NCBI GenBank assembly: GCA_047602755.1 | Contig: JBLKOM010000005.1 | Location: forward strand, 78,936 to 142,935 | Direction: 5' to 3' | Source of the DNA: Candidatus Woesearchaeota archaeon | Lineage (GTDB): Archaea; Nanobdellota; Nanobdellia; Woesearchaeales; JACJVV01 | Length of the DNA: 64,000 nt | Shown here: positions 45,070-64,000 of the stretch, in pieces | Layout: each line of letters starts with the position of its first letter | Numbering within the stretch: the stretch's first letter is position 1 | Position numbers and translations under genes: made by a program | The notes under the pieces: model-generated | What the model saw: only the letters and a program-made list of their open reading frames with translations | What the model was told of the DNA's origin: nothing | Databases searched by the model: none

Positions 45070-46326
45070 ATGGCAAAAACAAAACAAAAAATAACAAAAA
45101 AAGATACTAAAGCTAAAGTGAAAAAAAATAAAGTAAAAAAAGGTAAAATAAACAAAAAAATACCAGTTACTATTCTTAGTGGTTTTTTAGGCAGTGGTAA
45201 GACCACACTAATTAATCATATTCTTAAAACTAAGAAAAATATGAGAGTTGCATTAATAGTTAATGACATGGCTGCATTTAATATTGATGGACAAAATGTT
45301 TCAGATAAAATATCACAAACTGAAGAAAAACTAGTTCAAATCCAGAATGGATGTATATGTTGTACACTAAGAGAAGATTTATTTAAAGAAGTAAAAAAAA
45401 TTGCAAAGGAAAATAAATATGATTATTTAATTATAGAATCAAGTGGGATTTCTGAACCTTTACCAGTGGCTGCAACTTTTACTTTTCCACTAAATGAGAA
45501 AGAATGTTTAAGTGATGTTGCAGAAGTTGATACAATGGTTACAGTTGTTGATGCAAAAAATTTTATTGATGAGTATAATTCAACTGAAACATTAAAGGAT
45601 AGAAAACAACAAGTATCAGAAGAAGATGAAAGATCAGTTGTTGATCTGATGGTTGATCAATTAGAATTTGCGAATATTATTTTAGTCAATAAAGTAGATT
45701 TAGTTAATAAAAAACAATTAAAAGAGATACATGGAATGATTCGTTCCATTAATTCAGAAGCAGAAATTATTGACACTATAAATGGACAAGTTAAGCTTGA
45801 TAAAATAATGCATACTAAAAAATTTAATTTTGAAAAAGCATCAGAATATCCAACTTGGCTGAAAGAGATACAACGAAAAAATGATCATGTTCCTGAAACA
45901 GAAGAATATGGTATTTCAAGCTTTGTTTTTAAGTCAAAATTACCACTTCATCCTGAGAGATTTTGGAAGTTTATACATACAAAACATCCAGGTTTAATAC
46001 GTGCAAAAGGATACTTTTGGTTATCAACAAGAATGAAATTTGTTGGAGATTATCAACTTGCAGGTAAACAAAAAGAATTTGGGGTTGCTGGTGAATGGTG
46101 GGTAACTGTAGACAAAAAAGAATGGCCTAAAGGATTAAAGAAAATAATAAAACCAGTATGGGATGAAAAATTTGGTGATAGACGGCAAGAGATGGTTTTT
46201 ATAGGAATAAAGATAAGTAAAAAACAAATTGAAAAACAATTAAAAGAATGCCTTTTAACCAAAGAAGAATTAAAGCAAGATTATGAGAACTTTAATGACC
46301 CATTTCCTAAGTGGGTAGCTAAGTAG
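45070..46326 (+). CDS. COG0523 (CobW/ZigA/YjiA-family) metallochaperone GTPase
   Basis: Walker A GFLGSGKTT, metal-binding GCICCT (CxCC) and a CobW C-terminal domain. Lys-rich N-terminal extension. Confidence 0.85.
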   Translation: MAKTKQKITKKDTKAKVKKNKVKKGKINKKIPVTILSGFLGSGKTTLINHILKTKKNMRVALIVNDMAAFNIDGQNVSDKISQTEEKLVQIQNGCICCTLREDLFKEVKKIAKENKYDYLIIESSGISEPLPVAATFTFPLNEKECLSDVAEVDTMVTVVDAKNFIDEYNSTETLKDRKQQVSEEDERSVVDLMVDQLEFANIILVNKVDLVNKKQLKEIHGMIRSINSEAEIIDTINGQVKLDKIMHTKKFNFEKASEYPTWLKEIQRKNDHVPETEEYGISSFVFKSKLPLHPERFWKFIHTKHPGLIRAKGYFWLSTRMKFVGDYQLAGKQKEFGVAGEWWVTVDKKEWPKGLKKIIKPVWDEKFGDRRQEMVFIGIKISKKQIEKQLKECLLTKEELKQDYENFNDPFPKWVAK

Positions 46327-51498: not shown

Positions 51499-52335
51499 TT
51501 ATGCAATTGATTTTATTCTAATATAATTAATTACATTTTGATATAGTAATATTAAAATAAATATTAGTGCATTAAATAAAATAATTGTTCCGGACACTGC
51601 AAAGTCAAAATAATATGCAATAATTAGTCCTAAAATAACAGTTAATACAGAAATTATAATTGAAGAGAATGTTGTTTTTTTAAAGCTGGTTTTTAATTGA
51701 AGTGCAGACGCTGCAGGTAATATTATTAATGCAGAAGCAAGCATTAGTCCAACAATATTCATTGCTGATACAATCGTTATTGCTGTAAGTATAATTAACA
51801 TTGTATTTAAGAAATTAACATTTATTCCAGATATTTTTGCAGATTCTTCATCAAATGAAATATAAAATAATTCTTTGTTAAATACAAGAATAAAAATAAT
51901 AACAGTAATAGCAAGAAATACTGATAAATATAATTCAGTAGTACTAACTGATAAAATACTCCCAAATAAGTAACTTAGAATATCAACATTAAAACCACTT
52001 GCCATACTTATTATAAAAATGCCTATGCCTAAACTTGCATGACTAACAATCCCTATTGCTGTATCTCCATGAATATTTGATTTTTCTTTTAGTTTTAATA
52101 TACCTAATGATCCGATTAATCCAAATAATAATGCACTAATAAATGGTACAAAATTAAATAAAAGACCAGTAGCAACTCCACCAAATGAGATGTGCGCAAT
52201 ACCATCTCCAATCAATGAAAATCTTCTTAGAACTAAAAATATTCCAAGAAGTGAGCATGCAATTGCAATAAGTATTCCTACAATAAAGGCTCTTTGCATA
52301 AATCCATAAGATAAAATTTCAATCATATTTTTCAC
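51499..52335 (-). CDS. znuB: Zn/Mn ABC transporter permease (ABC-3/ZnuB family)
   Basis: 8 TM. Family-typical G-rich helices. Part of an operon with the ATPase and the binding protein. Confidence 0.85.
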   Translation of the reverse strand: MKNMIEILSYGFMQRAFIVGILIAIACSLLGIFLVLRRFSLIGDGIAHISFGGVATGLLFNFVPFISALLFGLIGSLGILKLKEKSNIHGDTAIGIVSHASLGIGIFIISMASGFNVDILSYLFGSILSVSTTELYLSVFLAITVIIFILVFNKELFYISFDEESAKISGINVNFLNTMLIILTAITIVSAMNIVGLMLASALIILPAASALQLKTSFKKTTFSSIIISVLTVILGLIIAYYFDFAVSGTIILFNALIFILILLYQNVINYIRIKSIA

Positions 52336-52357
52336 AATTTATTTTTGTTTAATAATA

Positions 52358-53191
52358 TCATTTATCGAAACATAATTCATGCTCCTCATGATTATGTTTA
52401 TGTTCATGTTTATGATGATTAAGGTGGTCATGAATCTGTTCATGATCTGGGTCATTAGCACAAAATTCTTTATGACTTCCATAAAATTTTAAAGTTTGAT
52501 TAATACTTGCAACTTTAGTTACATATTTAGTTATTCTATTAACATCATGTGAAACTAGTATTATTGTAATACCATCTTGATTCAGTTTTCCAAGCAAAAA
52601 ATAGAATGATTTTTGATTTTGTTGATCAACTCCTGTAGTTGGTTCATCTAATATTAGTATTTCTGGATTTGTAATTATTGCTTTTGCAATTAAAACACGT
52701 TGTTGTTCACCACCTGATAATTCACTAATTCTAGAATCTTTATACTTGAGCATTTTTACAATAGATAATGCTTGAATTATTTTCTCATTATCAATCTTAT
52801 TAAGTATTTTTGGGAATTTTTTGCTTGATAATAAGCCCATTGCTACTACTTCATATACTGTAGCAGGAAAATTTTTTTCGATATTTGTTGCTTTTTGTGG
52901 TACATACCCTATTTTATTCCACTCGCTAAATTTGCTAATTTCTTTTCCAAATAACTTAATTGTTCCTTTTCTTGGTTTAATTATGCCTAATATGATTTTT
53001 AGAAGTGTTGTCTTACCTGATCCATTTGGTCCTATCAAACCTATAAAATCACCCTTTTTAATAGACATAGAAACATCTTTAACAACATCTTTTTTGGTAT
53101 ATGAAAAACTTATACTATTTAATTCTAATAACTTTTTTGTATTTGAATTAGTTCTATTTTTTGTTATTAATTTATTCATTATTGCATTCAA
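52358..53191 (-). CDS. znuC: Zn/Mn ABC transporter ATP-binding protein with a His-rich C-terminus
   Basis: GPNGSGKTT, LSGGEQQR, ILDEPTTGVD and the C-terminal tail HDHLNHHKHEHKHNHEEHE. Confidence 0.85.
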   Translation of the reverse strand: MNAIMNKLITKNRTNSNTKKLLELNSISFSYTKKDVVKDVSMSIKKGDFIGLIGPNGSGKTTLLKIILGIIKPRKGTIKLFGKEISKFSEWNKIGYVPQKATNIEKNFPATVYEVVAMGLLSSKKFPKILNKIDNEKIIQALSIVKMLKYKDSRISELSGGEQQRVLIAKAIITNPEILILDEPTTGVDQQNQKSFYFLLGKLNQDGITIILVSHDVNRITKYVTKVASINQTLKFYGSHKEFCANDPDHEQIHDHLNHHKHEHKHNHEEHELCFDK

Positions 53192-54467
53192 GACCTATCT
53201 CTAGGTTATCAAGATTTTCTTTCATAAGATCAATAAATGTAATTCCTTGATCTATTTCATCTTGCATTAAATTATGTCCTGGATTTAATACTAGTATCTC
53301 AGCACCTACTTCTTGTGCGATTGTTTGAGCCATTCTTGGATTTACCATTTTTTCAAAGTAGATATATTTTATATCATTTTCTTTAGTTAAATCAACAATC
53401 TGCCTCAATGTCTGAGGTGTTGGCTCTGCATTAGGTGATAAACCATATGCTGATTTTACCTCTAAATTGTATCTACTTGCAAGATATCTAAATGAATCAT
53501 GTCCACCAGTTATAAAAATTGAATGTTTACAATTTGTTAAACTATTTGTATATAACTTATCTAATTCGTCAAATAATTCCATATATTCAATTGCATTATC
53601 AAGATAATAATAATTATTTTCTGAATCTATTGCTGATAAAACTTCATAAAGTTCATGTAAGATTAGTTTATTATTTTCAAAATCAAGCCAAAAATGAGGA
53701 TCATATTCTCCATGATGGTGATCATGTTCTTCATGATGTTCATATTCATGTTCTAAAAATTCATAAATTATTTCTTCAATCTCATGTAAAGCATCATCTG
53801 AAGTCATTATATTATCTTCCCATTCATGTATGATTTTATCAATTATCTTTATTATTTCATGGAAATCATGATTATGTTCTTCATGATCATTCTCATCATG
53901 TTCTTCATGATGATCATTTTCTAAAAAATGATGGATTATTTCTTCAATCTCATGTAAAGCTTTATTTGAAGTCATTATATTATCTTCCCACTCATGTATA
54001 TAATATTCAATATTTGTTATTATTTCTTTTATTTCATGATTATCATGATATTCATCATGTGAGTCTAATAGATTTACAAAAGAACTTGTATCTATTATTT
54101 TTAAATTTGGATTATTTATTCCTTCTAATATATCATGTGCCCAAGGTTCCATATCTTCTCCAATGAAAATGAAAATATCTGCTGAATTTATTTTTCTTAT
54201 ATCGCTTGGTTTTGGTTCAAATGTATGTGCTTCTGCTCCTGGCGGTAATAATAATGTGGTTTCTACATTCTCTCCTCCGACTTGTTTAGCAAATTCATAT
54301 AATGGATATAATGTTGTTACAATAACTATTTTGTCTTCAGTTTCATATTCTTTAGAACCAGTAGAACATGCCATTAGTGAGAAAAGAATCGTACTTACTA
54401 ATACTGAAATAATAGTAATTTTCTTTAATATTTTTAGATAATTATTGATTTTTTTAATATTATACAT
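53172..54467 (-). CDS. znuA: Metal (zinc) ABC transporter substrate-binding protein with a duplicated His/Glu-rich loop
   Basis: TroA/ZnuA cluster A-I fold motifs: N-terminal lipoprotein-like signal, HTFEP, DPHFWLD and a long H/E/D-rich insert. Confidence 0.8.
   Translation of the reverse strand: MYNIKKINNYLKILKKITIISVLVSTILFSLMACSTGSKEYETEDKIVIVTTLYPLYEFAKQVGGENVETTLLLPPGAEAHTFEPKPSDIRKINSADIFIFIGEDMEPWAHDILEGINNPNLKIIDTSSFVNLLDSHDEYHDNHEIKEIITNIEYYIHEWEDNIMTSNKALHEIEEIIHHFLENDHHEEHDENDHEEHNHDFHEIIKIIDKIIHEWEDNIMTSDDALHEIEEIIYEFLEHEYEHHEEHDHHHGEYDPHFWLDFENNKLILHELYEVLSAIDSENNYYYLDNAIEYMELFDELDKLYTNSLTNCKHSIFITGGHDSFRYLASRYNLEVKSAYGLSPNAEPTPQTLRQIVDLTKENDIKYIYFEKMVNPRMAQTIAQEVGAEILVLNPGHNLMQDEIDQGITFIDLMKENLDNLEIGLECNNE
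53771..53999. repeat. Internal ~60-nt direct repeat, two copies about 168 nt apart, within the znuA His-rich loop region
   Basis: 53771-53830 and 53939-53999 are about 90% identical and encode IHEWEDNIMTS(N/D)(K/D)ALHEIEEII twice. Confidence 0.7.
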
Positions 54468-54508
54468 TATATCACCTTATATAGTAAAGCAGAATCTTTT
54501 TATATAAC

Positions 54509-54531
54509 TTATTGATTTAGATTATCAATAA
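54509..54531. promoter_or_regulatory. Fur/Zur-box-like inverted repeat in the znuA / 54579 divergent promoter
   Basis: TTATTGATTTAGATTATCAATAA shares both arms with the 45017 box and differs at 3 central positions. Confidence 0.55.
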
Positions 54532-54578
54532 GGCAATAATATCTGAGATTATATTAATTAGGTATTTATACTAAAAAA

Positions 54579-54881
54579 ATGAAGAAAAAAATAAATATTA
54601 AGCTACAAAATAATATTAAGATTTATTTTTCTAATCTTTACAAGAATTCAAAAGTTTTTAGAAATTTAACAAATTTCTTTGGAATAAGCTTTGGTGCTTC
54701 TACTATGTATTATATCATTCCAGGATGTCCATGTTGTGGAAAACCACCTGCAATGTGTGCGTTATCAATTTTTACAGGATTAATAATTGGGTTTATAGTA
54801 GGAATCTTTTTTTATTTATGGCTAGGTATAAAGATTGTTTATAATAATGTTAAGAAAATTTTGGTTTTTAATGATGATTAA
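54579..54881 (+). CDS. Small membrane protein with a CPCCGKPPAMC motif
   Basis: 100 aa, 2 TM and a Cys cluster. Lies between znuA and the fur-family gene. Confidence 0.4.
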   Translation: MKKKINIKLQNNIKIYFSNLYKNSKVFRNLTNFFGISFGASTMYYIIPGCPCCGKPPAMCALSIFTGLIIGFIVGIFFYLWLGIKIVYNNVKKILVFNDD

Positions 54882-54921
54882 TATAATTATGATACATAGT
54901 AACAAAAACAACTGACTAAAA

Positions 54922-55305
54922 ATGGTAAAAAAACGTAATACTCGTCAAAAAGAAATAATGGAAAATGAATTAGCTAAGATAGATTCATTTTTTACAGCAG
55001 ATGAATTTCATGAGAAAATATTAGCAAAAGATAAAAATATGGGGATTGCGACAATTTATCGTTTTTTAAGTGAATTAAAAGAAAACAATAAAATTTATTC
55101 TTATATTTGTGATAGGAAAACAGTATTTACAACACAAGACAATAGTCATTGTCATTTTATTTGTGAGAAAACAGGTAAAATTATTCATTTCAAGATTGAT
55201 TCAATAGATTTTCTAAAGAATAAAATACCAGGTTCAATAAAAAGTTTTCAACTGGAAATAAGAGGAGAATGTAAAGATGATTGCAATAAATGTTGCAAAG
55301 ATTAA
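54922..55305 (+). CDS. Fur-family metalloregulator, probably Zur
   Basis: The wHTH region (IYRFLSELKENNKI) is followed by a HCHF and a C-terminal Cys cluster CKDDCNKCCKD. Confidence 0.8.
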   Translation: MVKKRNTRQKEIMENELAKIDSFFTADEFHEKILAKDKNMGIATIYRFLSELKENNKIYSYICDRKTVFTTQDNSHCHFICEKTGKIIHFKIDSIDFLKNKIPGSIKSFQLEIRGECKDDCNKCCKD

Positions 55306-55969: not shown

Positions 55970-56959
55970 TTAATTCTTTTTGCAATATTGATATGCATAA
56001 AAAGAAGCTGTAACAGCCTGCGAAACACCAATTATTGCTTGCTTCCAATCAACATCAGTTACATCTCCAGCAGCAAAGAATCCCTTAATATTTGTTTGAG
56101 ATTTTTTATCAATAATAATTTCTTTTTTCTTATTAATTTTTACACCCAATTCTTTTGCTAATTCGCTTCTAGGGATATGGCCAATATATACAAATACGCC
56201 TTCAACATTAAGTTGTTTGTTTTTCTTATATGGCTTCTTCAATAAAATGTTATTCACAGTTTTATTTCCTTTTATTTCTACAATTTCATTATTATTTATT
56301 ACTTCTATTTTTCTTTTTTTTACTAATTCATCAAGTATTTTTTGATTGTGATGTTCTGGATGGAGTTCAGATTCATTATTAACAATAAAAACTTTTTTTG
56401 CATATTCTGTTACTAGAATTGCTTCTTTAACAGCGCTATCTCCTCCACCTGCTAGTGCTACAATTTTACCTTTGATATATGCTGCATCACATAAAGCACA
56501 ATAATTAACACCTCTACCCATAAATTCTTTTTCACCAGGAATGTTTAGATGTTTTACCTTGCTTCCTGTTGCATAAATGATTGTTTTAGAACTAAAAGTT
56601 AAACTTCCTACTAAAACCTTAAAGCCTTTTTTTGTTTTTGTTATTTTGTTGACAATATCAATAAGAAAATCAACATCATAATCCATAGCATGATTCTCCA
56701 TCAATTCAGTTAGTTTTTGTCCAGGAATAGATATAAAACCAGGATAGTTTTCAACTCTTCCTGTTTCTACAAGAGTTCCACCTGGTACTTCACCTATAAT
56801 TAAAACTTTTAACCCCAGTCGTGCAGCATACATTGCTGAAGAATAGCCTGATACACCTGTCCCTATAACAATAGTGTCATAAAACTTATTTACATCAGGT
56901 TCATGTTTAAAATTATTTCTTGGAGAAAAGATTATATCATTTGTAATATTATTTTTCAT
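55970..56959 (-). CDS. trxB: Thioredoxin-disulfide reductase
   Basis: FAD-binding GTGVSGYSSA, redox-active CALCDA (CxxC) and NADPH-binding GGGDSAVKEA. Confidence 0.85.
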   Translation of the reverse strand: MKNNITNDIIFSPRNNFKHEPDVNKFYDTIVIGTGVSGYSSAMYAARLGLKVLIIGEVPGGTLVETGRVENYPGFISIPGQKLTELMENHAMDYDVDFLIDIVNKITKTKKGFKVLVGSLTFSSKTIIYATGSKVKHLNIPGEKEFMGRGVNYCALCDAAYIKGKIVALAGGGDSAVKEAILVTEYAKKVFIVNNESELHPEHHNQKILDELVKKRKIEVINNNEIVEIKGNKTVNNILLKKPYKKNKQLNVEGVFVYIGHIPRSELAKELGVKINKKKEIIIDKKSQTNIKGFFAAGDVTDVDWKQAIIGVSQAVTASFYAYQYCKKN

Positions 56960-57023
56960 TTTAGTGTTTTAGTTTTTTCTTGTATATTAATAATTTCTTA
57001 TACATTAACAATATTAAATATTT

Positions 57024-58394
57024 TTATCTTAATAGATGTGGTGCAAAAAGTAAAATTAATCCTATAATAAACATTACTACACCACCAATTAACTTACAAT
57101 ATTTTGCATACTTTTGTGTTAAACCGCTTCCTAACGCAAATGCAGCCATACCAAAAATAATTATATGATCAAGCATATAGAAAAATACATACAATAATAT
57201 ATACATATAATGTTGGAATGTTGTCAAACCACTTAATGCTAATATTTGTGTGAAAACAGCAGGAATAGCAGCAGAGCATACAAATTCAATTGCATTAACA
57301 ACAAATGCTAAAACAATAATTGAACCTATAACTCCTAATGTAATAGGTTGTGAGATTATTTTTTGTATTTTATCCATAGTTTTTTCATGGCTCTCATCAT
57401 CACCAACCTTGCATGTTAAATCACCTTTAGTAGTCATCCATTCTTTTACATGTAGAATTCCAACTCCTAAAGCAAACATTCCAATAATTATAGTTAATAA
57501 TTTAACATACCCTATGAATAAAAATAAATTTAGCCATGCTGTCATAAATAAGAAATATGAAATTGCTGATGCAAGAACAAAACTTCCTACAACTAACCAA
57601 ATCTTTTTCTTGCTTTTTTCTCCCATTAATAATGTTATTAAGAAAATTAGAACCCATAATGCACATGGATTAAAACCATCAACAAGTCCAAGGATAATAG
57701 CAAGTACTGGTAAAGACCATGCAAGTAAATCAACTCTACCTAAAAAAGGTAATTCAAATTCACGATATCCATCTTCAACATTATGCATTGTATCTGTTTG
57801 ATATTGTTCACCTAAACATTCATCTTCACATACATCAATTGCTGATAGTAAATTCTCTTTTGATTGAAGACCAACAAGCGGTCTTCCACCAACGATAGTT
57901 GTAGGGACTGATAAACGTGAACTATCAAGTCCAAGTTCATTATAAATTTTCAAAAAATATGCTGAACCTTCTTGAGTAGAAGCATCATATTCAATAAATT
58001 GAACATTAGGTCGTAATTCTTTAACTTCATCAAGAATTGGTCTTTGTTGATTACAATATGGGCAAGTAGGTGTATAAAAATAATAAACTACTGGTAAATC
58101 TGGATCAAAATCTTGAGTTGATGCATCATCTGTATACATATAAGCAAAAACACCTAATAAAAGTATGAAAATAACAAGCGAAACATTAAATGGTGATGAG
58201 AAAAAAGAAGTTATTGCACTAACAAACTTATTACGTTTTTTAGAGCTATTATCAGTAGTATTACTATTTGATGAATTATCTGAATTATTTTTATCTAAAC
58301 TTGATTTACTTTTCTTTTTGTTTTTTTTAGCCATTTTCGTGTTTTTATTTAATCTGTAACGCTTCTTTAAGCTTTGCGATATTATATCCAACAA
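57024..58394 (-). CDS. Thioredoxin-like domain fused to a CcdA/DsbD-type transmembrane thiol-disulfide transporter
   Basis: Periplasmic Trx-fold with CPYC, followed by the CcdA core (FNPCALWVL... and a second conserved Cys in FVCSAAIP). The true start is probably the second Met (MAKKNKKK). Confidence 0.7.
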   Translation of the reverse strand: MLDIISQSLKKRYRLNKNTKMAKKNKKKSKSSLDKNNSDNSSNSNTTDNSSKKRNKFVSAITSFFSSPFNVSLVIFILLLGVFAYMYTDDASTQDFDPDLPVVYYFYTPTCPYCNQQRPILDEVKELRPNVQFIEYDASTQEGSAYFLKIYNELGLDSSRLSVPTTIVGGRPLVGLQSKENLLSAIDVCEDECLGEQYQTDTMHNVEDGYREFELPFLGRVDLLAWSLPVLAIILGLVDGFNPCALWVLIFLITLLMGEKSKKKIWLVVGSFVLASAISYFLFMTAWLNLFLFIGYVKLLTIIIGMFALGVGILHVKEWMTTKGDLTCKVGDDESHEKTMDKIQKIISQPITLGVIGSIIVLAFVVNAIEFVCSAAIPAVFTQILALSGLTTFQHYMYILLYVFFYMLDHIIIFGMAAFALGSGLTQKYAKYCKLIGGVVMFIIGLILLFAPHLLR

Positions 58395-58596
58395 TTATCG
58401 TACCATTTGCATCTACAACAGGAACATTTGATTGTTCACTTTTCTTTTCCATCTCAGCTGCTTTCTTTTTATCTTTACTTATATCAATCTCAGTGAATTT
58501 AATATTATTTCTTTCTAAATACTTTTTTACAATTATACAAAAAGGACAAGCCGGAGCTGTATATAAAATCACTTTCATTTTGACTACCTTAGTCAC
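58345..58596 (-). CDS. Glutaredoxin/NrdH-like small redoxin
   Basis: ILYTAPACPFC...TEIDI...VPVVDANGTIIVGYN is a Grx-fold signature. Confidence 0.75.
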   Translation of the reverse strand: MTKVVKMKVILYTAPACPFCIIVKKYLERNNIKFTEIDISKDKKKAAEMEKKSEQSNVPVVDANGTIIVGYNIAKLKEALQIK

Positions 58597-58722
58597 CAGA
58601 CTGTGGGACTCTTTAAGTATTTTTCGATGTAATATAACATTTTAATTTTTTAATGTATTACTTAAATATGAAAACAATTAATTTTGCATAAGATTTAAAA
58701 ATAGACTAGTTTTAGTTAATTT

Positions 58723-59337
58723 ATGAAAAATATAAAAAAAATATTTTACTTTGGAGAAAAAGTTAGAGGTTATGATGTACCTGTGCTAAATGAACGTGAA
58801 GCAAGAGCAGGAGCAGGTATTATGTTTTTATTTGCGTCAATTGCTTTTTTTAATGCATTATTGTTAGCAAATTTTTACTATATAAAATTAGTTGTTATTG
58901 CATTTCTTATTGATTTTTTCATAAGAGTAATGGTTAATCCTAAATATGCACCAAGTTTAATAATAGGTCGTTTGATTGTTTCTAATCAAAAACCTGAATA
59001 TACTGGTGCACCACAAAAAAGATTTGCTTGGAGTATTGGTTTAGTTTTAGCAACAATAATGTTTTATTTTATTGTACTTCAAAATTTACGAGGACCAATT
59101 AATTTAGCAATTTGTTTGTTGTGTTTAACATTATTATTTTTTGAAACTGCATTTGGAATTTGTATTGGCTGTAAAATGTATAATTTTTTTACCAAAAAAA
59201 GTGCAAAACATTGTCCAGGGGGTGTATGTGAATTAAATGTTAAGGAACCTATTCAGAAAACAAATTTTATTCAAATAATAGTTGCTTTAGTAGTAATTGG
59301 ATTACTTATTGCAATACATTATTTTAGAATTTTATAG
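58723..59337 (+). CDS. Polytopic membrane protein with a conserved Cys pair (CIGC...HCPGGVC)
   Basis: 4-5 TM. Lies next to the redoxin cluster. Confidence 0.4.
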   Translation: MKNIKKIFYFGEKVRGYDVPVLNEREARAGAGIMFLFASIAFFNALLLANFYYIKLVVIAFLIDFFIRVMVNPKYAPSLIIGRLIVSNQKPEYTGAPQKRFAWSIGLVLATIMFYFIVLQNLRGPINLAICLLCLTLLFFETAFGICIGCKMYNFFTKKSAKHCPGGVCELNVKEPIQKTNFIQIIVALVVIGLLIAIHYFRIL

Positions 59338-59975: not shown

Positions 59976-60794
59976 CTAAGCTTTAACAGAAGCTTTTTGT
60001 GTTCCTTTCTGTACACTTGCTTGTTCAATAATTACATTATACTTTTGTTCATCGCGAATTACTGATTGTACCAATCTTGTATAATCTTTTGTAGCTTGAC
60101 TATTAGGAGCATACTTGAAAATACTTTCTCCTTTACTAGGTGCTTCTTTTAATTTTGAACAAGTATGAATTGGATCTGCAACAATTTCATAATAATCATT
60201 TGTAATTTTGCTCAATATTTCTTTACATACTTTTAGGCGTTTATCATACATTGTTGGTACTATTTTTGTAATTTGACAATCATGATCAAAAACACTATTT
60301 AAACTATCAATTGCAAGTATTATCTTTTTTAATGCTTTGAATCCTAAAATGTCAGTGCTTGTTGGGATTATTGCTTCGTTTGCAGCAAGTAAAGCATTTT
60401 GATTTAATAATCCTAAACTAGGACTACAATCAATCAAGATATAATCATATCCAACAATTTCTTTTAGCTTATTTCTAAATATTAATTCTCTATTTTGCTC
60501 ACCAACCAATAAAAATTCTGCTTTGGTTAATGTTTCTTTACTTGTCATTAAATCTAAATTTTCACCTAAATGAATTAAACATTCTCTATAATCACAAGTA
60601 TTTATTAAGAAATCATAAACATCTTTTACACTTTGTGATCTCAATGCTACTCCAACATTACCTTGTGCATCTAAATCTATAACCAAAACTTTCTTACCTT
60701 TTCTGCTAAGTCCAGCGGCAAGAGAAATTGTTGTAGTTGTCTTTGCGACACCACCTTTTTGATTTATAATCGCTATTGTTCTCATCCACTTCAT
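59976..60794 (-). CDS. parA: ParA/Soj/MinD-family partition ATPase
   Basis: Deviant Walker A KGGVAKTTT, and VLVIDLDAQGN. Confidence 0.85.
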   Translation of the reverse strand: MKWMRTIAIINQKGGVAKTTTTISLAAGLSRKGKKVLVIDLDAQGNVGVALRSQSVKDVYDFLINTCDYRECLIHLGENLDLMTSKETLTKAEFLLVGEQNRELIFRNKLKEIVGYDYILIDCSPSLGLLNQNALLAANEAIIPTSTDILGFKALKKIILAIDSLNSVFDHDCQITKIVPTMYDKRLKVCKEILSKITNDYYEIVADPIHTCSKLKEAPSKGESIFKYAPNSQATKDYTRLVQSVIRDEQKYNVIIEQASVQKGTQKASVKA

Positions 60795-60980
60795 CCTCCT
60801 TTCTATAATATAAATAGACTATAAGTATAGAGAATTGTATACTGATATATAAATATTACGCTTATTTGAAATATAAACTTTAAAAAATATTTTTCATATA
60901 TATTATATGCTCAATATATTTTAGTAGTTAAGAATCTAAAAAGAATTAGTTGTGTTATTTGGGGAATGAGGAGGTGGAAA

Positions 60981-61103
60981 ATGCAAAAATTAGTTGAAAA
61001 AACCAGCTTTCTTGGACACAAGAGAATTGTTGTATTTGAAGAAGACTATGATAGCGGAGATTATTCATACATTGATGGAGAGTGGATCTGGGGAAGAAAA
61101 TGA
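60981..61103 (+). CDS. Candidate 40-aa small ORF with a strong SD, divergent from parA
   Basis: AGGAGGTGG followed 4 nt later by ATG, encoding MQKLVEKTSFLGHKRIVVFEEDYDSGDYSYIDGEWIWGRK. Locally GC-enriched. Confidence 0.25.
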   Translation: MQKLVEKTSFLGHKRIVVFEEDYDSGDYSYIDGEWIWGRK

Positions 61104-61200
61104 AAATACATAATAAATAGTTTAATCAATTTTTAGTAGTTTTACCATTATTTAATATTTGTTTACTATATATTTTCTATGTTTATTTGATCTATTTTTA

Positions 61201-61854
61201 TTATTTAATTAAATAGGAAACATCATCTCTGAATTGACTGGTATTTAGATTTCTTAATAATGGTAATTCATGAGCTATGCAAGTAAACACATCTTGTGTT
61301 ACTTGATCAAGATTACGATTAGTTGTATCAATAATATACCATCCTTCATTTTTTGCTGTTGACATAAAATATTCACGTGTCTTTCTTCGAAAAAAAGTAT
61401 CAGTTAAGATTCTTTCATCATGAGGTTCATTAATTCCTTGATTACGTTCATTTATTCTTCTAAATTGTTCTTCTTCGCTTACTGTTAATAAAATTGTAGC
61501 AACAGGTTTTTTTAGATCATAATTTTCTGCATTTTTTATTGCTTGATTGACTGATTTGCCAAAGAGTAAGCTATTAGATATTATTGTGCTATGCATATAT
61601 CGACCAAGTAGATAAATGTCTTCAGGTGATAACTCACTTAATGTAAATTCATTGCCTTTCATGAAATAATTAAAACGTGAGTCAAAAGTATTATTCGGTT
61701 TTGGAAATTCAGCAATATATCTTTTAGAGGGTGTTTCTAGGTATTTAATTCCTAATTTTTCAATATTTTTTCCTACACTAGTCTTTCCTGAGCCATCTAT
61801 TCCCTCGAGTACAAAAAAATCAATACTTTCTTCGCTATTAATTTGTTGAATCAT
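61201..61854 (-). CDS. Thymidylate-kinase-like P-loop (d)NMP kinase
   Basis: P-loop FFVLEGIDGSGKTS is Tmk-type. It has a Tmk-like lid/DRY-like region but is otherwise divergent. Confidence 0.6.
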   Translation of the reverse strand: MIQQINSEESIDFFVLEGIDGSGKTSVGKNIEKLGIKYLETPSKRYIAEFPKPNNTFDSRFNYFMKGNEFTLSELSPEDIYLLGRYMHSTIISNSLLFGKSVNQAIKNAENYDLKKPVATILLTVSEEEQFRRINERNQGINEPHDERILTDTFFRRKTREYFMSTAKNEGWYIIDTTNRNLDQVTQDVFTCIAHELPLLRNLNTSQFRDDVSYLIK

Positions 61855-62425
61855 TTTTTACCCCATTATTAAAAAAAGAATTTTTCTCCATATATAATGA
61901 AGTTATACTTGTATCTATTCTATCATTTTCATCTATACCTAAATCATCCATCAATGAATGAATTAAATCTTTATTTTTCTGGAATTCACCACTGTCTATT
62001 ATTTCAACCTCAATACATAAAGGAAAATTTTCAAACTTTTCAATGTTAATACACATTTTTTCATTTTTATATGTCTCTCGTTTCTTTTTTACCGTACAAA
62101 ATACTTTGAATCCTAAAATATCCAGTATTTTTTGCATTGATTTCACATCTTTGAATTCAGTCTCGGATTCATCAAAAATTTGATGATCAGATTCATTTAC
62201 AATTGTCTTTATAGTTAATTCAGGGTATTTATTATCTTGAAGTCTTATCCTTAGACCATAAGAACCAACTTTATTCATTTTAGTATCTGCATAACTTTGT
62301 ATTGATTTTTTGCAATACCAAATATCTTCAATTGATGTTTCACTAATTTTTTTAATTCCTTTTAATTCTAATTGTTTTCTTAATAATTCTTCATTCTTAA
62401 TATAAGATCTTATTTCGATTTCCAT
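61838..62425 (-). CDS. CYTH-domain protein (CyaB/thiamine-triphosphatase-like triphosphate tunnel enzyme)
   Basis: N-terminal EIEIR...K and later E-x-E-x-E acidic patterns on alternating beta-strands. About 195 aa. Confidence 0.55.
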   Translation of the reverse strand: MEIEIRSYIKNEELLRKQLELKGIKKISETSIEDIWYCKKSIQSYADTKMNKVGSYGLRIRLQDNKYPELTIKTIVNESDHQIFDESETEFKDVKSMQKILDILGFKVFCTVKKKRETYKNEKMCINIEKFENFPLCIEVEIIDSGEFQKNKDLIHSLMDDLGIDENDRIDTSITSLYMEKNSFFNNGVKNDSTN

Positions 62426-62437
62426 TTTATTTCCTCA

Positions 62438-63973
62438 TTATTTCTTTAAGCCTATTGGTTGATGCATTTTACTTTGATCGCGATAAATTGTTATACCTTT
62501 TAGTCCTAGTTTCATTGCTTCAACATATATTGATTTAACATCTTCTGGTGATGCATATTGATTGATATTTACTGTTTTTGAGATAGCTTCATCTGTGAAT
62601 TTTTGGAATGCAGACACTATTGCAAGTTGCCTATCAGCTGAGATATCTAATTGAGATAAATAAATATTCCGAATTTCTTCAGGTATTAAAATTGGATCAC
62701 CTTGGTCTTTTAATTCTAATATTTTTTCAATTGCAGGTTTAACATAACCATATTCTTCTAATTGGTTGTATAACACTTCTCTCATGTTTGTTGATAATTT
62801 ATCTGAAAAATATGGTTCAATAGATGGACTTGCATCAATAACAAGTGAGCTTCTTCCAGTGGGAGGTAAAGCAGTAGTACTTACATGTCTTATTCCAGTC
62901 TTAGCTATTGTTTCTTCTAGCTCAATCCAATCTCTTACAGTCACCATTGCAGTAGAATATTTCCCAAATCTATCTGCAATATATCCTTTCCCAATTTTAG
63001 TTTCAGTATCATAAAAGGCAGGGAATGGTCCACGTTCTTTTGATAGTTCTATTGAAGCTTCTTTAGAGGTATAATTTACAAAACTCATTAGTTCTTCGGC
63101 AATTATTTCTGCATCAAATGAATCATAAGGAATTTTTAATTTTGCTAACATATCAGCAAATCCGCAAATCCCTAATCCTATTTTTCTTTTTTTATTCATT
63201 ATATCTACACTTGTGTCATTACCATAATTTGATATGCTTATATCTAATGCATCATCAAGAAATCTTACAACATCATGTATTGCTCGTCTTAATTCAGAAT
63301 ATGAAATTCTATTTTTATCTACAAATGCACCTACATTAAGATATGTAAATTGACATGTTTCACCTTCAGTCATTGCTATTTCACCGCAAGGAGCTAATGA
63401 AACATATTTTCCAAGGTGTGGTGCAGGATTATCTGTTTCAAACCGATCTAAAAAAGCAAGACCTGGATCTCCACATTCCCATGCAGAATTAACTATCTTT
63501 TCAAGTAATTCATTTGGATCAACAAAACTTCCATCTGATAATGTATAAACACTATTATTAAATAAAACTTTTACAAATTCATTTGGAACATTTACTGAAA
63601 TGTTAAAAATCCATTCTTTGTCTTTTGATTTTGTTTTACTTTCTATAAATTCAAATATCTTTGGATGATTTAAAGATATTATACCCATATTTCCTACAGG
63701 CCTATCTTGTTTGCCACTGTATTGCCCTTTAATTGCTACTTCATTTAGATAATTAAGCATCTCTACAGGATTATCACATTCATCAAAATTAAAACCAGTT
63801 CCCATCCCATTGATATGGTATTGATCTACAATTGCTTTAATTTTATTTAAATCATCACGAAGACTTATTGGAGGAACTGAACAAGCAGCTAATGGTTTAT
63901 CTTTATACCTACCTGCATTTGTCAGAAGGGTTGTGCTAGGGACAAATTGTTTACCATATAATCTTTTTGTCAT
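62438..63973 (-). CDS. nrdJ: Second class II ribonucleotide reductase paralogue lacking the ATP cone and C-terminal zinc finger
   Basis: FVPSTTLLTNAG, LAACSV, APCGEI and GETCQF(TYLNV) motifs, plus TTALPPTGRSS. 511 aa. Confidence 0.85.
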   Translation of the reverse strand: MTKRLYGKQFVPSTTLLTNAGRYKDKPLAACSVPPISLRDDLNKIKAIVDQYHINGMGTGFNFDECDNPVEMLNYLNEVAIKGQYSGKQDRPVGNMGIISLNHPKIFEFIESKTKSKDKEWIFNISVNVPNEFVKVLFNNSVYTLSDGSFVDPNELLEKIVNSAWECGDPGLAFLDRFETDNPAPHLGKYVSLAPCGEIAMTEGETCQFTYLNVGAFVDKNRISYSELRRAIHDVVRFLDDALDISISNYGNDTSVDIMNKKRKIGLGICGFADMLAKLKIPYDSFDAEIIAEELMSFVNYTSKEASIELSKERGPFPAFYDTETKIGKGYIADRFGKYSTAMVTVRDWIELEETIAKTGIRHVSTTALPPTGRSSLVIDASPSIEPYFSDKLSTNMREVLYNQLEEYGYVKPAIEKILELKDQGDPILIPEEIRNIYLSQLDISADRQLAIVSAFQKFTDEAISKTVNINQYASPEDVKSIYVEAMKLGLKGITIYRDQSKMHQPIGLKK

Positions 63974-64000
63974 TCGTTCTTTAAAATCAATTATCTCTTT

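Follow-up and report, generated by a model that had tools for sequence, protein, structure and literature searches.

Is the block of genes that closes a 64,000-nucleotide stretch of a Candidatus Woesearchaeota genome (contig JBLKOM010000005.1; the whole stretch is called here the window) a piece of mobile or viral DNA, and what might its products do together? The block comprises genes for RNR2, the second ribonucleotide reductase (RNR) of the window, for a CYTH-domain triphosphate-tunnel metalloenzyme (TTM), and for a divergent P-loop kinase of the thymidylate-kinase superfamily (the Tmk-like kinase), with a gene for a ParA ATPase further downstream. An initial annotation had seen in these genes a nucleotide-metabolism module of mobile or viral origin. 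Comparison with related loci indicates that the first three very probably form a conserved chromosomal nucleotide operon and not a mobile module. The operon is best read as vertically inherited in the chromosome of this DPANN archaeon.

Conservation and origin of the operon

The surroundings of the RNR gene were compared in 80 species-representative loci, in which open reading frames (ORFs) were called and searched with family hidden Markov models within a radius of 1.5 kb around the RNR; representatives of each family were confirmed with Pfam and NCBIfam. In the lineage whose RNR is 58% identical to RNR2, the order RNR–CYTH–Tmk-like is unchanged in 14 contigs; this order can be read in L002–L005 and L089. 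In another Woesearchaeota metagenome-assembled genome (MAG) the RNR and CYTH are fused (P0004/L006), and the neighbors of the fusion gene are NrdR, NrdD, NrdG, a ThyA+dCMP-deaminase fusion, an HD protein, Trx, and the RNA polymerase operon. Of the 80 loci, 52 encode a hydrolase, either CYTH or NUDIX, and 30 encode a kinase that belongs to any of three families. CYTH is found near the RNR in 20 loci (16 within 100 bp, one fusion) and NUDIX in 36 (29 within 100 bp, with C-terminal fusions in L010 and in six database proteins), the two being fused at the identical C-terminal position of the RNR. The kinases are the Tmk-like one (16 loci), a second P-loop kinase that is AAA_17/DNMK-like (K2, 12 loci), and a third (K3, nine loci). 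An HD phosphohydrolase occurs in five loci and a GreA-like protein in 13. CYTH and the Tmk-like kinase are both present in nine loci besides the window and L002. Among non-actinomycete loci, the GreA-like protein aside, no further family recurs in more than three, and in actinomycete loci NUDIX is present and the kinase absent. For comparison, with about 1000 genes in a genome, we infer that chance would bring a single-copy gene this near to a given gene in well under 1% of cases. The recurrent hydrolase and kinase partners and the fusions bear out the notion of a nucleotide-metabolism module. In the literature searched, no description was found of the CYTH/Tmk pairing beside an RNR, as the initial annotation had suspected, nor of the recurrent RNR–hydrolase–kinase neighborhood, widespread in ultra-small bacteria and archaea, of which the window holds one instance and which is built on an RNR clade lacking a conserved asparagine.

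The notion of a mobile or viral origin fares differently. A nucleotide cassette of this kind, kept with the help of the adjoining ParA, would agree with the existence of phage counterparts for the RNR, Tmk, and ParA families, with the position of ParA beside the block, and with the fact that the scans stop at base 64000, beyond which the upstream side of RNR2 lies. The following observations are against it. GC content is flat at ~27% along the window, and GC at third codon positions and codon usage of the four genes fall inside the spread of the window, RNR2 ranking 2nd of 46 genes for closeness to the mean codon usage; the composition of 59976-64000, proposed as a check at the outset, thus proved typical. 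The scan for mobile genes took in 40 of the 69 window ORFs of at least 110 amino acids (aa) and the sequence up to base 64000. No integrase, transposase, or virion/capsid family was found in the 40 scanned ORFs, no tRNA gene in the 64-kb window, and no att-like or parS-like repeat in the window searches. The rest of the window is given over to housekeeping functions of the cell, among them iPGM, PGK, DinB, PolB, a P-type ATPase, ZnuABC, Fur, a COG0523 GTPase, TrxR, and glutaredoxin.

The search for viral relatives gave a similar picture. Among the 2.9 million viral contigs of IMG/VR, essentially without members of the family, there is a single distant relative of RNR2, 29% identical. Matches in blastn searches against phage and plasmid DNA are confined to the first part of the ParA gene (~110-160 nt at its 5′ end), and PADLOC and PHROGs matches for the block proteins are only generic. 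In a neighbor-joining tree RNR2 clusters with L002 and a Woesearchaeota MAG, so that the suspicion of a virus-like copy is not borne out. The synteny shared by DPANN and Patescibacteria chromosomes (the 14 contigs, the fusion beside the RNA polymerase operon, and the nine further species) is a further point against mobility. A mobile or viral origin is already largely refuted, and we regard it as extremely improbable.

The ParA protein, which had been taken as a mark of replicon or mobile-element maintenance, has the Walker A motif KGGVAKTT and scores 93.6 bits against NCBIfam ParA_partition (cut-off 180). Neither a ParB-like gene nor a repeat array lies near it. It adjoins RNR2 in the window and in the Logan contig identical to it, is missing from all other loci, and was rejected as a member of the module. 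A reading of the region as a defense island was likewise rejected, as PADLOC gave only generic kinase-level matches: none for RNR2, CYTH, or the 40-aa ORF listed in Table 1. For the Tmk-like kinase, PADLOC returned PDC-M51B at 47 bits and VakA at 33 bits, no better than the generic Tmk Pfam match.

The RNR2, CYTH, Tmk-like, and ParA ORFs are present on the minus strand where the initial annotation had placed them, with Pfam domains that agree (Table 1). The CYTH gene starts 13 nt past the RNR2 stop and, as had been noted, overlaps the Tmk-like gene by 17 nt (61838-61854); the Tmk-like gene is translationally coupled to it. The length of 511 aa initially given to RNR2 is an artefact of the window edge. 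Nine codons (KEIIDFKER) located 5′ of the ATG at 63973 are free of stops, and the frame is open up to base 64000. Because the TIGR02504 match to RNR2 begins at model position 57, and because 25 residues precede the LTNAG motif in the visible protein versus 67-82 in the full-length homologs checked, RNR2 is cut by the window edge and this ATG is most likely internal, with ~55 N-terminal residues most likely falling beyond the edge. Homologs of RNR2 are ~570-580 aa long. A 4.4-kb Logan contig with exact matches to CYTH and the Tmk-like kinase likewise stops inside RNR2. The 40-aa ORF, correctly described as strongly led by a Shine-Dalgarno sequence, was independently predicted by the gene caller on Logan contig L001. 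It has no family match among the Pfam, NCBIfam, PADLOC, and PHROGs profiles and was rejected as a member of the module, having no counterpart at any related locus. No riboswitch was found with Rfam in the window or in 11 related loci, tRNAs being the sole matches in the latter.

Table 1. Features of the window discussed in the text (positions counted from the first base of the 64,000)
Feature	Position	Strand	Remarks
RNR2, class-II-like ribonucleotide reductase of the APC[GA]E clade	62438..64000	-	PF02867 8e-78; 520 codons visible
CYTH / triphosphate-tunnel metalloenzyme, 195 aa	61838..62425	-	PF01928 8e-13; NCBI MFT4303993.1 "class IV adenylate cyclase"
Divergent thymidylate-kinase-superfamily P-loop kinase, 217 aa	61201..61854	-	PF02223 1e-12; NCBI MFT4303992.1 "hypothetical protein"
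40-aa ORF	60981..61103	+	Shine-Dalgarno-like GGAGGTG ahead; neighbor, outside the conserved module
ParA/MinD-superfamily ATPase, 272 aa	59976..60794	-	AAA_31 2.7e-46, CbiA 3e-19; neighbor, outside the conserved module
NrdJ1, 949 aa	8121-10970	-	ATP cone + lgN + barrel; STNPCGE
Thioredoxin-reductase-like flavoprotein	55970-56959		
Membrane protein, 456 aa	57024-58394		Thioredoxin/glutaredoxin-like domain
Glutaredoxin/NrdH-like protein, 83 aa	58345-58596		50-nt overlap with the membrane protein gene
DUF4395 protein	58723-59337		
Zinc-homeostasis set	45070-46326, 51499-55305		COG0523/CobW GTPase, ZnuB, ZnuC, ZnuA, Fur-family regulator
Family-B DNA polymerase, 754 aa	25902-28166	+	Divergent PolB; Pfam matches weak (1e-12)

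The neighborhood varies among lineages in several other ways. The four independent contigs of L002-L005 all start 250-262 bp upstream of the RNR start, which points to a repeat or a break in the assembly immediately ahead of the gene. In Patescibacteria (L027, L032, L042, L043, L058, L072, and others), an operon of GreA-like, Tmk-like, and CYTH genes is convergent on the RNR; its GreA/GreB-like protein is perhaps Rnk-like, and some proteins (P0185, P0233) fuse the GreA-like to the Tmk-like domain. In Peribacteria, a P-loop kinase::CYTH fusion lies directly after the RNR (L009:3579-4793), and a separate 372-aa protein of the uridine-kinase/PRK family is encoded at L009:5250-6368. The actinomycete RNR–NUDIX pair (L049, L054, L068, L069, L078, L084-L086, and others) is flanked by large XRE-type helix-turn-helix proteins, one family of which (~505 aa) has a peptide-deformylase-like domain (GIAAPQ...EGCLS...HEVDH) at its C-terminal end. 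Among metagenomic relatives, the one nearest to the window CYTH (59% identical) has no adjoining RNR. It lies in a cluster (L088:1659-6112) with a Tmk-like kinase, a zinc-ADH-like protein, a DegT-type aminotransferase::NUDIX fusion, and a second, canonical ExExK CYTH, which may be a nucleotide-sugar context.

A reductase clade without the conserved asparagine

The motifs ACSV, APCGE, and ETCQF of RNR2 map to the catalytic positions of RNRs. Its finger loop reads SLAPCGEI and is followed by ETCQF; the corresponding motif is STNPCGE in NrdJ1, the first RNR of the window (28% identity over the barrel), and T-N-P-C-G-E in the NrdJ of Thermotoga maritima, against S-L-A-P-C-G-E in RNR2. The asparagine equivalent to N437 of Escherichia coli (N320 of T. 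maritima) is therefore lost and replaced by alanine; every characterized class I or II enzyme has Asn here. Among the 120 closest homologs, this position is Ala in 116 and Ser in two, the motif being unmatched in the remaining two, and at the 80 species-level loci it is Ala in nearly all and Ser in one, a few fragmented or pseudogene loci having no motif match. The C-N-L of T. maritima is replaced by C-Q-F in 115 of the 120 homologs, in covariation with the change from Asn to Ala. A further motif, P-P-T-G-R-S-S, was counted in 49 of the 120 top homologs, where NrdJ1 has P-T-G-T-I-S; its Arg is at least 90% conserved in a 36-sequence alignment (A1). This alignment contains 60 invariant columns, with a mean column identity of 38%, and the equivalents of C439, E441, C225, C462, and P438 (E. 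coli numbering) are all invariant in it.

Other features place the protein near class II enzymes. The Pro at E. coli position 438 is diagnostic for class II versus class I (bioRxiv 10.1101/2021.01.20.427478) and is present in RNR2 (A-P-C-G-E), and no ferritin-like β-subunit gene is recurrent in the neighborhoods of the clade. The best PDB match of RNR2 is the NrdJ of T. maritima (1XJE, 1e-53 over 440 residues), with which it shares the ten-stranded barrel, the Pro-Cys-Gly-Glu with the class-II Pro, both redox Cys, and the G-I-T-I-Y-R-D end. Unlike dimeric class II NrdJ, RNR2 has no cysteine-rich C-terminal domain, found in ~70% of NrdJ (PMC5704485), and presumably no ATP cone, and it scores 340.6 bits against TIGR02504 (NrdJ_Z), under the cut-off of 399.95, a shortfall that comes partly from the missing N-terminus.

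The C-terminus is indeed short. The proteins of the clade stop ~13 residues past G-I-T-I-Y-R-D and lack the cysteine pair, and the tails of the 120 homologs are mostly <20 aa, with 76 free of Cys and 10 with a single one. RNR2 itself ends 13 residues past GITIYRD and has no cysteine there, in agreement with the absence of a zinc finger noted at the outset. The absence of an ATP cone, also noted then, is not readable in the window, as the N-terminus lies outside it; it gains indirect support, PF03477 being present in none of the 120 homologs. The contrast drawn between the two NrdJ copies holds for the cone, which NrdJ1 has, and fails for the C-terminus: the tail of NrdJ1 (~60 aa) is cysteine-free as well. 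From their predicted sequences, the usual C-terminal redox pair or zinc domain is missing from both RNRs of the window.

The clade includes members from Woese-, Nanohalo-, and Micrarchaeota, many Patescibacteria, Dependentiae, some Proteobacteria, a Croceitalea, and cultured actinomycetes such as Nocardia, Amycolatopsis, and Saccharothrix. No description of this APC[GA]E clade was found in the literature searched, and no usable literature on RNR in Saccharibacteria and DPANN was found. The exact RNR2 protein is absent from the NCBI-derived protein collection (best match 58%), though exact entries, from a Candidatus Woesearchaeota MAG contig of 153 kb, are present for CYTH, the Tmk-like kinase, and NrdJ1; the deposited MAG may carry RNR2 as a partial gene or a pseudogene, or may simply lack it.

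Is an RNR of this kind active? The substrate ribose is contacted by N437 and E441 (PMC4493059), and N437 is treated in the literature as one of four essential "immutable" RNR residues, so that curation drops sequences without it as nonfunctional (bioRxiv 10.1101/2021.01.20.427478). One might accordingly see in RNR2 a pseudo-enzyme, or an enzyme of other chemistry whose function the neighboring genes serve, all the more as the window already holds a canonical NrdJ. This is very improbable: the 60 invariant columns of the 36 sequences include C439, E441, C225, C462, and P438, the clade is large and is kept in very small genomes, where dead genes seldom persist, and the covarying CQF motif suggests compensation. 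At the opposite extreme, the APC[GA]E/CQF reductases would be a mechanistically distinct RNR subclass that dispenses with Asn437 and forms a unit with a kinase and a dedicated phosphohydrolase, CYTH or NUDIX and sometimes fused. This too is rather unlikely. Patescibacteria and DPANN may in such a case rely on them as their main RNR, and they could accept or release nucleotides in another phosphorylation state than canonical class II enzymes do, as nucleoside triphosphates (NTPs) or even monophosphates (NMPs).

Hydrolase and kinase partners and their predicted roles

The CYTH protein of the window exceeds the gathering threshold of PF01928 and scores 51.1 bits against NCBIfam TIGR00318, below the cut-off of 57.95. 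The profile of its family matches 1YEM (4e-14) and SaTTM 7NS8 (3e-12) in the PDB. Thirteen tunnel residues are invariant in 23 sequences (E2, E4, R6, D34, R59, R61, K73, E86, E88, K114, R116, E139, and E141), and the inventory of the RNR-linked CYTH is complete (E-x-E-x-R, D-x-Y/W, LRxR, K, ExE, KxR, ExE). The protein thus appears to be a catalytically equipped triphosphate-tunnel phosphohydrolase, for which action on NTPs or their deoxy counterparts (dNTPs), or on triphosphate, as proposed in the initial annotation, stays reasonable chemistry. With other archaeal TTMs (SaTTM Saci_0718, PF0863 1YEM, PH1819) it shares the single CYTH domain of ~190 aa, the ExEx[K/R] strand, the water-placing DxY/W motif, the ExE metal site, and the basic tunnel residues. 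It differs from them in having Arg for the Lys of ExExK and in the subfamily motifs EM..VGS and GDH..W.E.E; moreover, it is linked to an RNR in a subset of genomes. SaTTM prefers inorganic triphosphate (PPPi). A true class IV adenylate cyclase needs the signature HFxxxxExExK (PMC8233210). As the HF motif is absent from the window protein, which starts MEIEIR, and from 23 relatives, the NCBI name "class IV adenylate cyclase" is probably wrong.

The Tmk-like family has genuine dTMP kinases as its best PDB matches (2YOF 9e-19, 2PBR 1e-17), and its invariant residues are E17, G18, D20, G23, K24, R85, Y86, P117, R133, and R137. It has in common with the Tmk superfamily, including PPK3, the P-loop ExxDGxGK[ST], the R-Y of the DRY motif, and the lid arginines, with a match to dTMP kinase at ~1e-18. 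It is unlike the rest of the superfamily in that its members are 20-40% identical, that it falls under the dTMP-kinase equivalog cut-off, and that the Asp of DRY is Gly in the window protein. The lineage is rare, with 24 representatives at E<=1e-10 in an exhaustive search of 1.84 billion proteins, and some of its distant relatives carry a fused GreA-like or deoxynucleoside-kinase domain. The kinase looks deoxy-specific from these features, and a dTMP kinase and a PPK3-like enzyme are not separable by sequence. The K2 kinase (~210 aa; L011, L018, L021, L060, etc.) has its best match at positions 58-207 of the 437-position NCBIfam model NF041025, "anti-phage dCTP deaminase" (8.6e-14). We take these positions to be the kinase-like half of the model, and the match hints at a deoxycytidine-nucleotide ligand. 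The best NCBIfam matches of the NUDIX partners are a pyrimidine (d)NTP diphosphatase and NudI, both weak (~31 bits).

Known systems provide three points of comparison. In phage T4, an RNR is accompanied by gp56, a dCTPase/dUTPase, and by gp1, a dNMP kinase; the gp56 hydrolase feeds dNMPs to modification or to thymidylate synthesis. The logic of reductase, hydrolase of (d)NTPs or the corresponding diphosphates ((d)NDPs), and dNMP kinase is the same, but the proteins are nonhomologous (gp56 is MazG-like and gp1 belongs to another kinase family), and T4 is viral whereas the block of the window is in a cellular chromosome. In Bacillus subtilis, the operon nrdI-nrdE-nrdF-ymaB also co-transcribes a cone-less RNR with YmaB, a dNTP pyrophosphohydrolase of the NUDIX family whose role is unsettled (PMC5960316). 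The NUDIX variant of the neighborhood (36 of the 80 loci) would be directly analogous at the level of the NUDIX family. That operon encodes, however, a class Ib RNR with NrdF and NrdI and not a class-II-like one, and among the Ib RNRs compared, a ymaB homolog is found in the RNR operon only in the genus Bacillus (PMC5960316); in the RNR2 clade the partner can instead be CYTH, can be fused, and is often joined by a kinase. In plant and amoebozoan TTM1/2, a CYTH is joined to a P-loop nucleotide kinase (PMC8233210, cluster 7), much as in the kinase::CYTH fusion of L009. There the kinase is PRK/uridine kinase, there is no link with RNR, and the CYTH domains of the plant proteins are without ExExK and act on pyrophosphate.

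All three proteins of the window keep their predicted catalytic residues, the Asn of RNR2 excepted, and it is from their sequences that we infer all substrates. With slightly better than even confidence, we see in the block an operon for the supply of deoxynucleotides: (d)NTPs would be trimmed by a triphosphatase, and dNMPs rephosphorylated by a kinase of the Tmk family. RNR2 would produce deoxynucleotides; CYTH, replaced in this role by the NUDIX enzyme in other lineages, would strip phosphate from (d)NTPs, most plausibly from dUTP and dCTP toward dUMP and dCMP; and the Tmk-like kinase would bring dTMP, or dNMPs in general, back to the diphosphate. The trio would then combine a thymidylate branch with the trimming of dNTP pools for an RNR without the off-switch of an ATP cone. 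A flow that is specifically of pyrimidines and thymidylate is a more tentative proposal, possible rather than probable. It is favored because kinases from three families have been recruited, the Tmk-like one looking deoxy-specific, because pyrimidine (d)NTP diphosphatases are what the NUDIX partners match best, though weakly, because ThyA and dCMP deaminase adjoin the fusion gene P0004/L006, and because of the analogy with B. subtilis ymaB (PMC5960316) and with the enzyme trio of T4.

Several observations weigh against this supply operon. The Tmk-like kinase scores 46.8 bits against TIGR00041, whose cut-off is 83.25 (62.2 for a Patescibacteria relative), and the family profile matches the PPK3 homolog 2PLR/5H70 (5.5e-17) about as well as it does dTMP kinases. 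CYTH and NUDIX co-occur in four of the 80 loci and need not be isofunctional. Thymidylate synthase adjoins the RNR in only one lineage, that of P0004/L006. RNR2, having lost the Asn, may not have normal activity. The main objection comes from SaTTM, the closest characterized CYTH, whose preference for PPPi over NTPs is 19-fold and which takes off only the γ-phosphate (PMC8233210); chemistry of this type would yield dNDP rather than dNMP. Finally, the association is weak in the reverse direction. Among 22 loci of metagenomic archaeal-type relatives of the window CYTH (30-59% identical), one has an RNR nearby, that of the L002 lineage, and ~10 loci with at least 3 kb of flank have no RNR and show varied contexts. 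Hence, the partnership of RNR and CYTH is frequent yet facultative.

Removal of the γ-phosphate alone would fit a different division of labor, in which CYTH turns NTP into NDP and Pi for an NDP-reducing RNR and the kinases make NDP from NMP. Hydrolysis of the γ-phosphate of NTPs is a documented CYTH activity (SaTTM, PMC8233210). Fusions such as RNR::CYTH typically join enzymes that act in succession. Among solved RNR structures, the nearest is the class II enzyme of T. maritima, which we take to reduce NDPs. Parcubacteria are poor in standard cmk, gmk, and tmk genes (PMC4508563). On the other hand, NDPs are normally provided by Ndk and Adk, NUDIX partners usually yield NMP and not NDP, the R-Y motif and the relatives of the Tmk-like kinase fused to deoxynucleoside kinases point to deoxy substrates, and the actinomycete loci have NUDIX without a kinase. 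We consider such a supply of substrate unlikely, though the first to be weighed beside the supply of deoxynucleotides.

The remaining alternatives, by falling weight, are housekeeping of PPPi and polyphosphate (polyP), production of an allosteric ligand, a noncanonical function of the RNR, and mobile origin, the last two having been discussed above. In the first of these, CYTH clears PPPi, released for example by the ATP:cob(I)alamin adenosyltransferase that makes the adenosylcobalamin of the RNR, and the Tmk-like protein is a polyP-dependent nucleotide kinase similar to PPK3 or PPK2. Archaeal CYTH of the SaTTM type indeed prefer PPPi and P4 (PMC8233210, PMC12995831) and are often located away from RNR, PPK3 belongs to the Tmk superfamily and was formerly annotated as thymidylate kinase (PMC12995831), and its homolog 2PLR/5H70 is matched as described. 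Yet genes for the adenosyltransferase, PPX, CHAD, or other polyP proteins are not recurrent near the RNR, NUDIX occupies the same fused position as CYTH and is inactive on PPPi, and the best PDB matches of the kinase are genuine dTMP kinases, with PPK2 at only ~1e-6, all of which makes this housekeeping role improbable. Still less probable is that the hydrolase turns a dNTP, such as dATP, into a dNMP or dNDP that regulates the cone-less RNR. It would account for the hydrolase adjoining or fused to the RNR in 52 of the 80 species in a family without an ATP cone, and a precedent has been proposed for YmaB and dAMP with the NrdE of B. subtilis (PMC5960316); the role of YmaB is itself speculative, however, and the recurrent kinases would be left unexplained.

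Other genes of the window and implications

A redox cluster (55970-59337) sits 1-4 kb downstream of ParA and includes the thioredoxin-reductase-like, membrane, glutaredoxin/NrdH-like, and DUF4395 proteins of Table 1. It is possible that this cluster supplies reductants to the tail-less RNRs. Thioredoxin, glutaredoxin, and TrxR were rejected as conserved partners of RNR2, as they were found only in the window and L007. The window also contains the zinc-homeostasis set and the divergent family-B polymerase of the table.

DNA precursors are made de novo only by ribonucleotide reduction, a reaction whose active-site residues are regarded as invariant. A large conserved clade without Asn437, ranging from episymbiotic Patescibacteria and DPANN through cultured actinomycetes, would challenge the indispensability of this residue. 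The residue-based filters in use in RNR ecology discard a real group; if the reductases do form a distinct subclass, current RNR curation pipelines would reject their sequences as nonfunctional. Two annotations are corrected, those of the CYTH protein as a class IV adenylate cyclase, which is probably wrong, and of the kinase as a hypothetical protein. In ultra-small genomes, the hydrolase and kinase partners are candidates to perform the tmk, cmk, and dut functions described as "missing," and they hint at a means of controlling dNTP pools when the ATP cone is absent. The genes of Nocardia and Amycolatopsis, which come from cultured organisms, make the system experimentally tractable.

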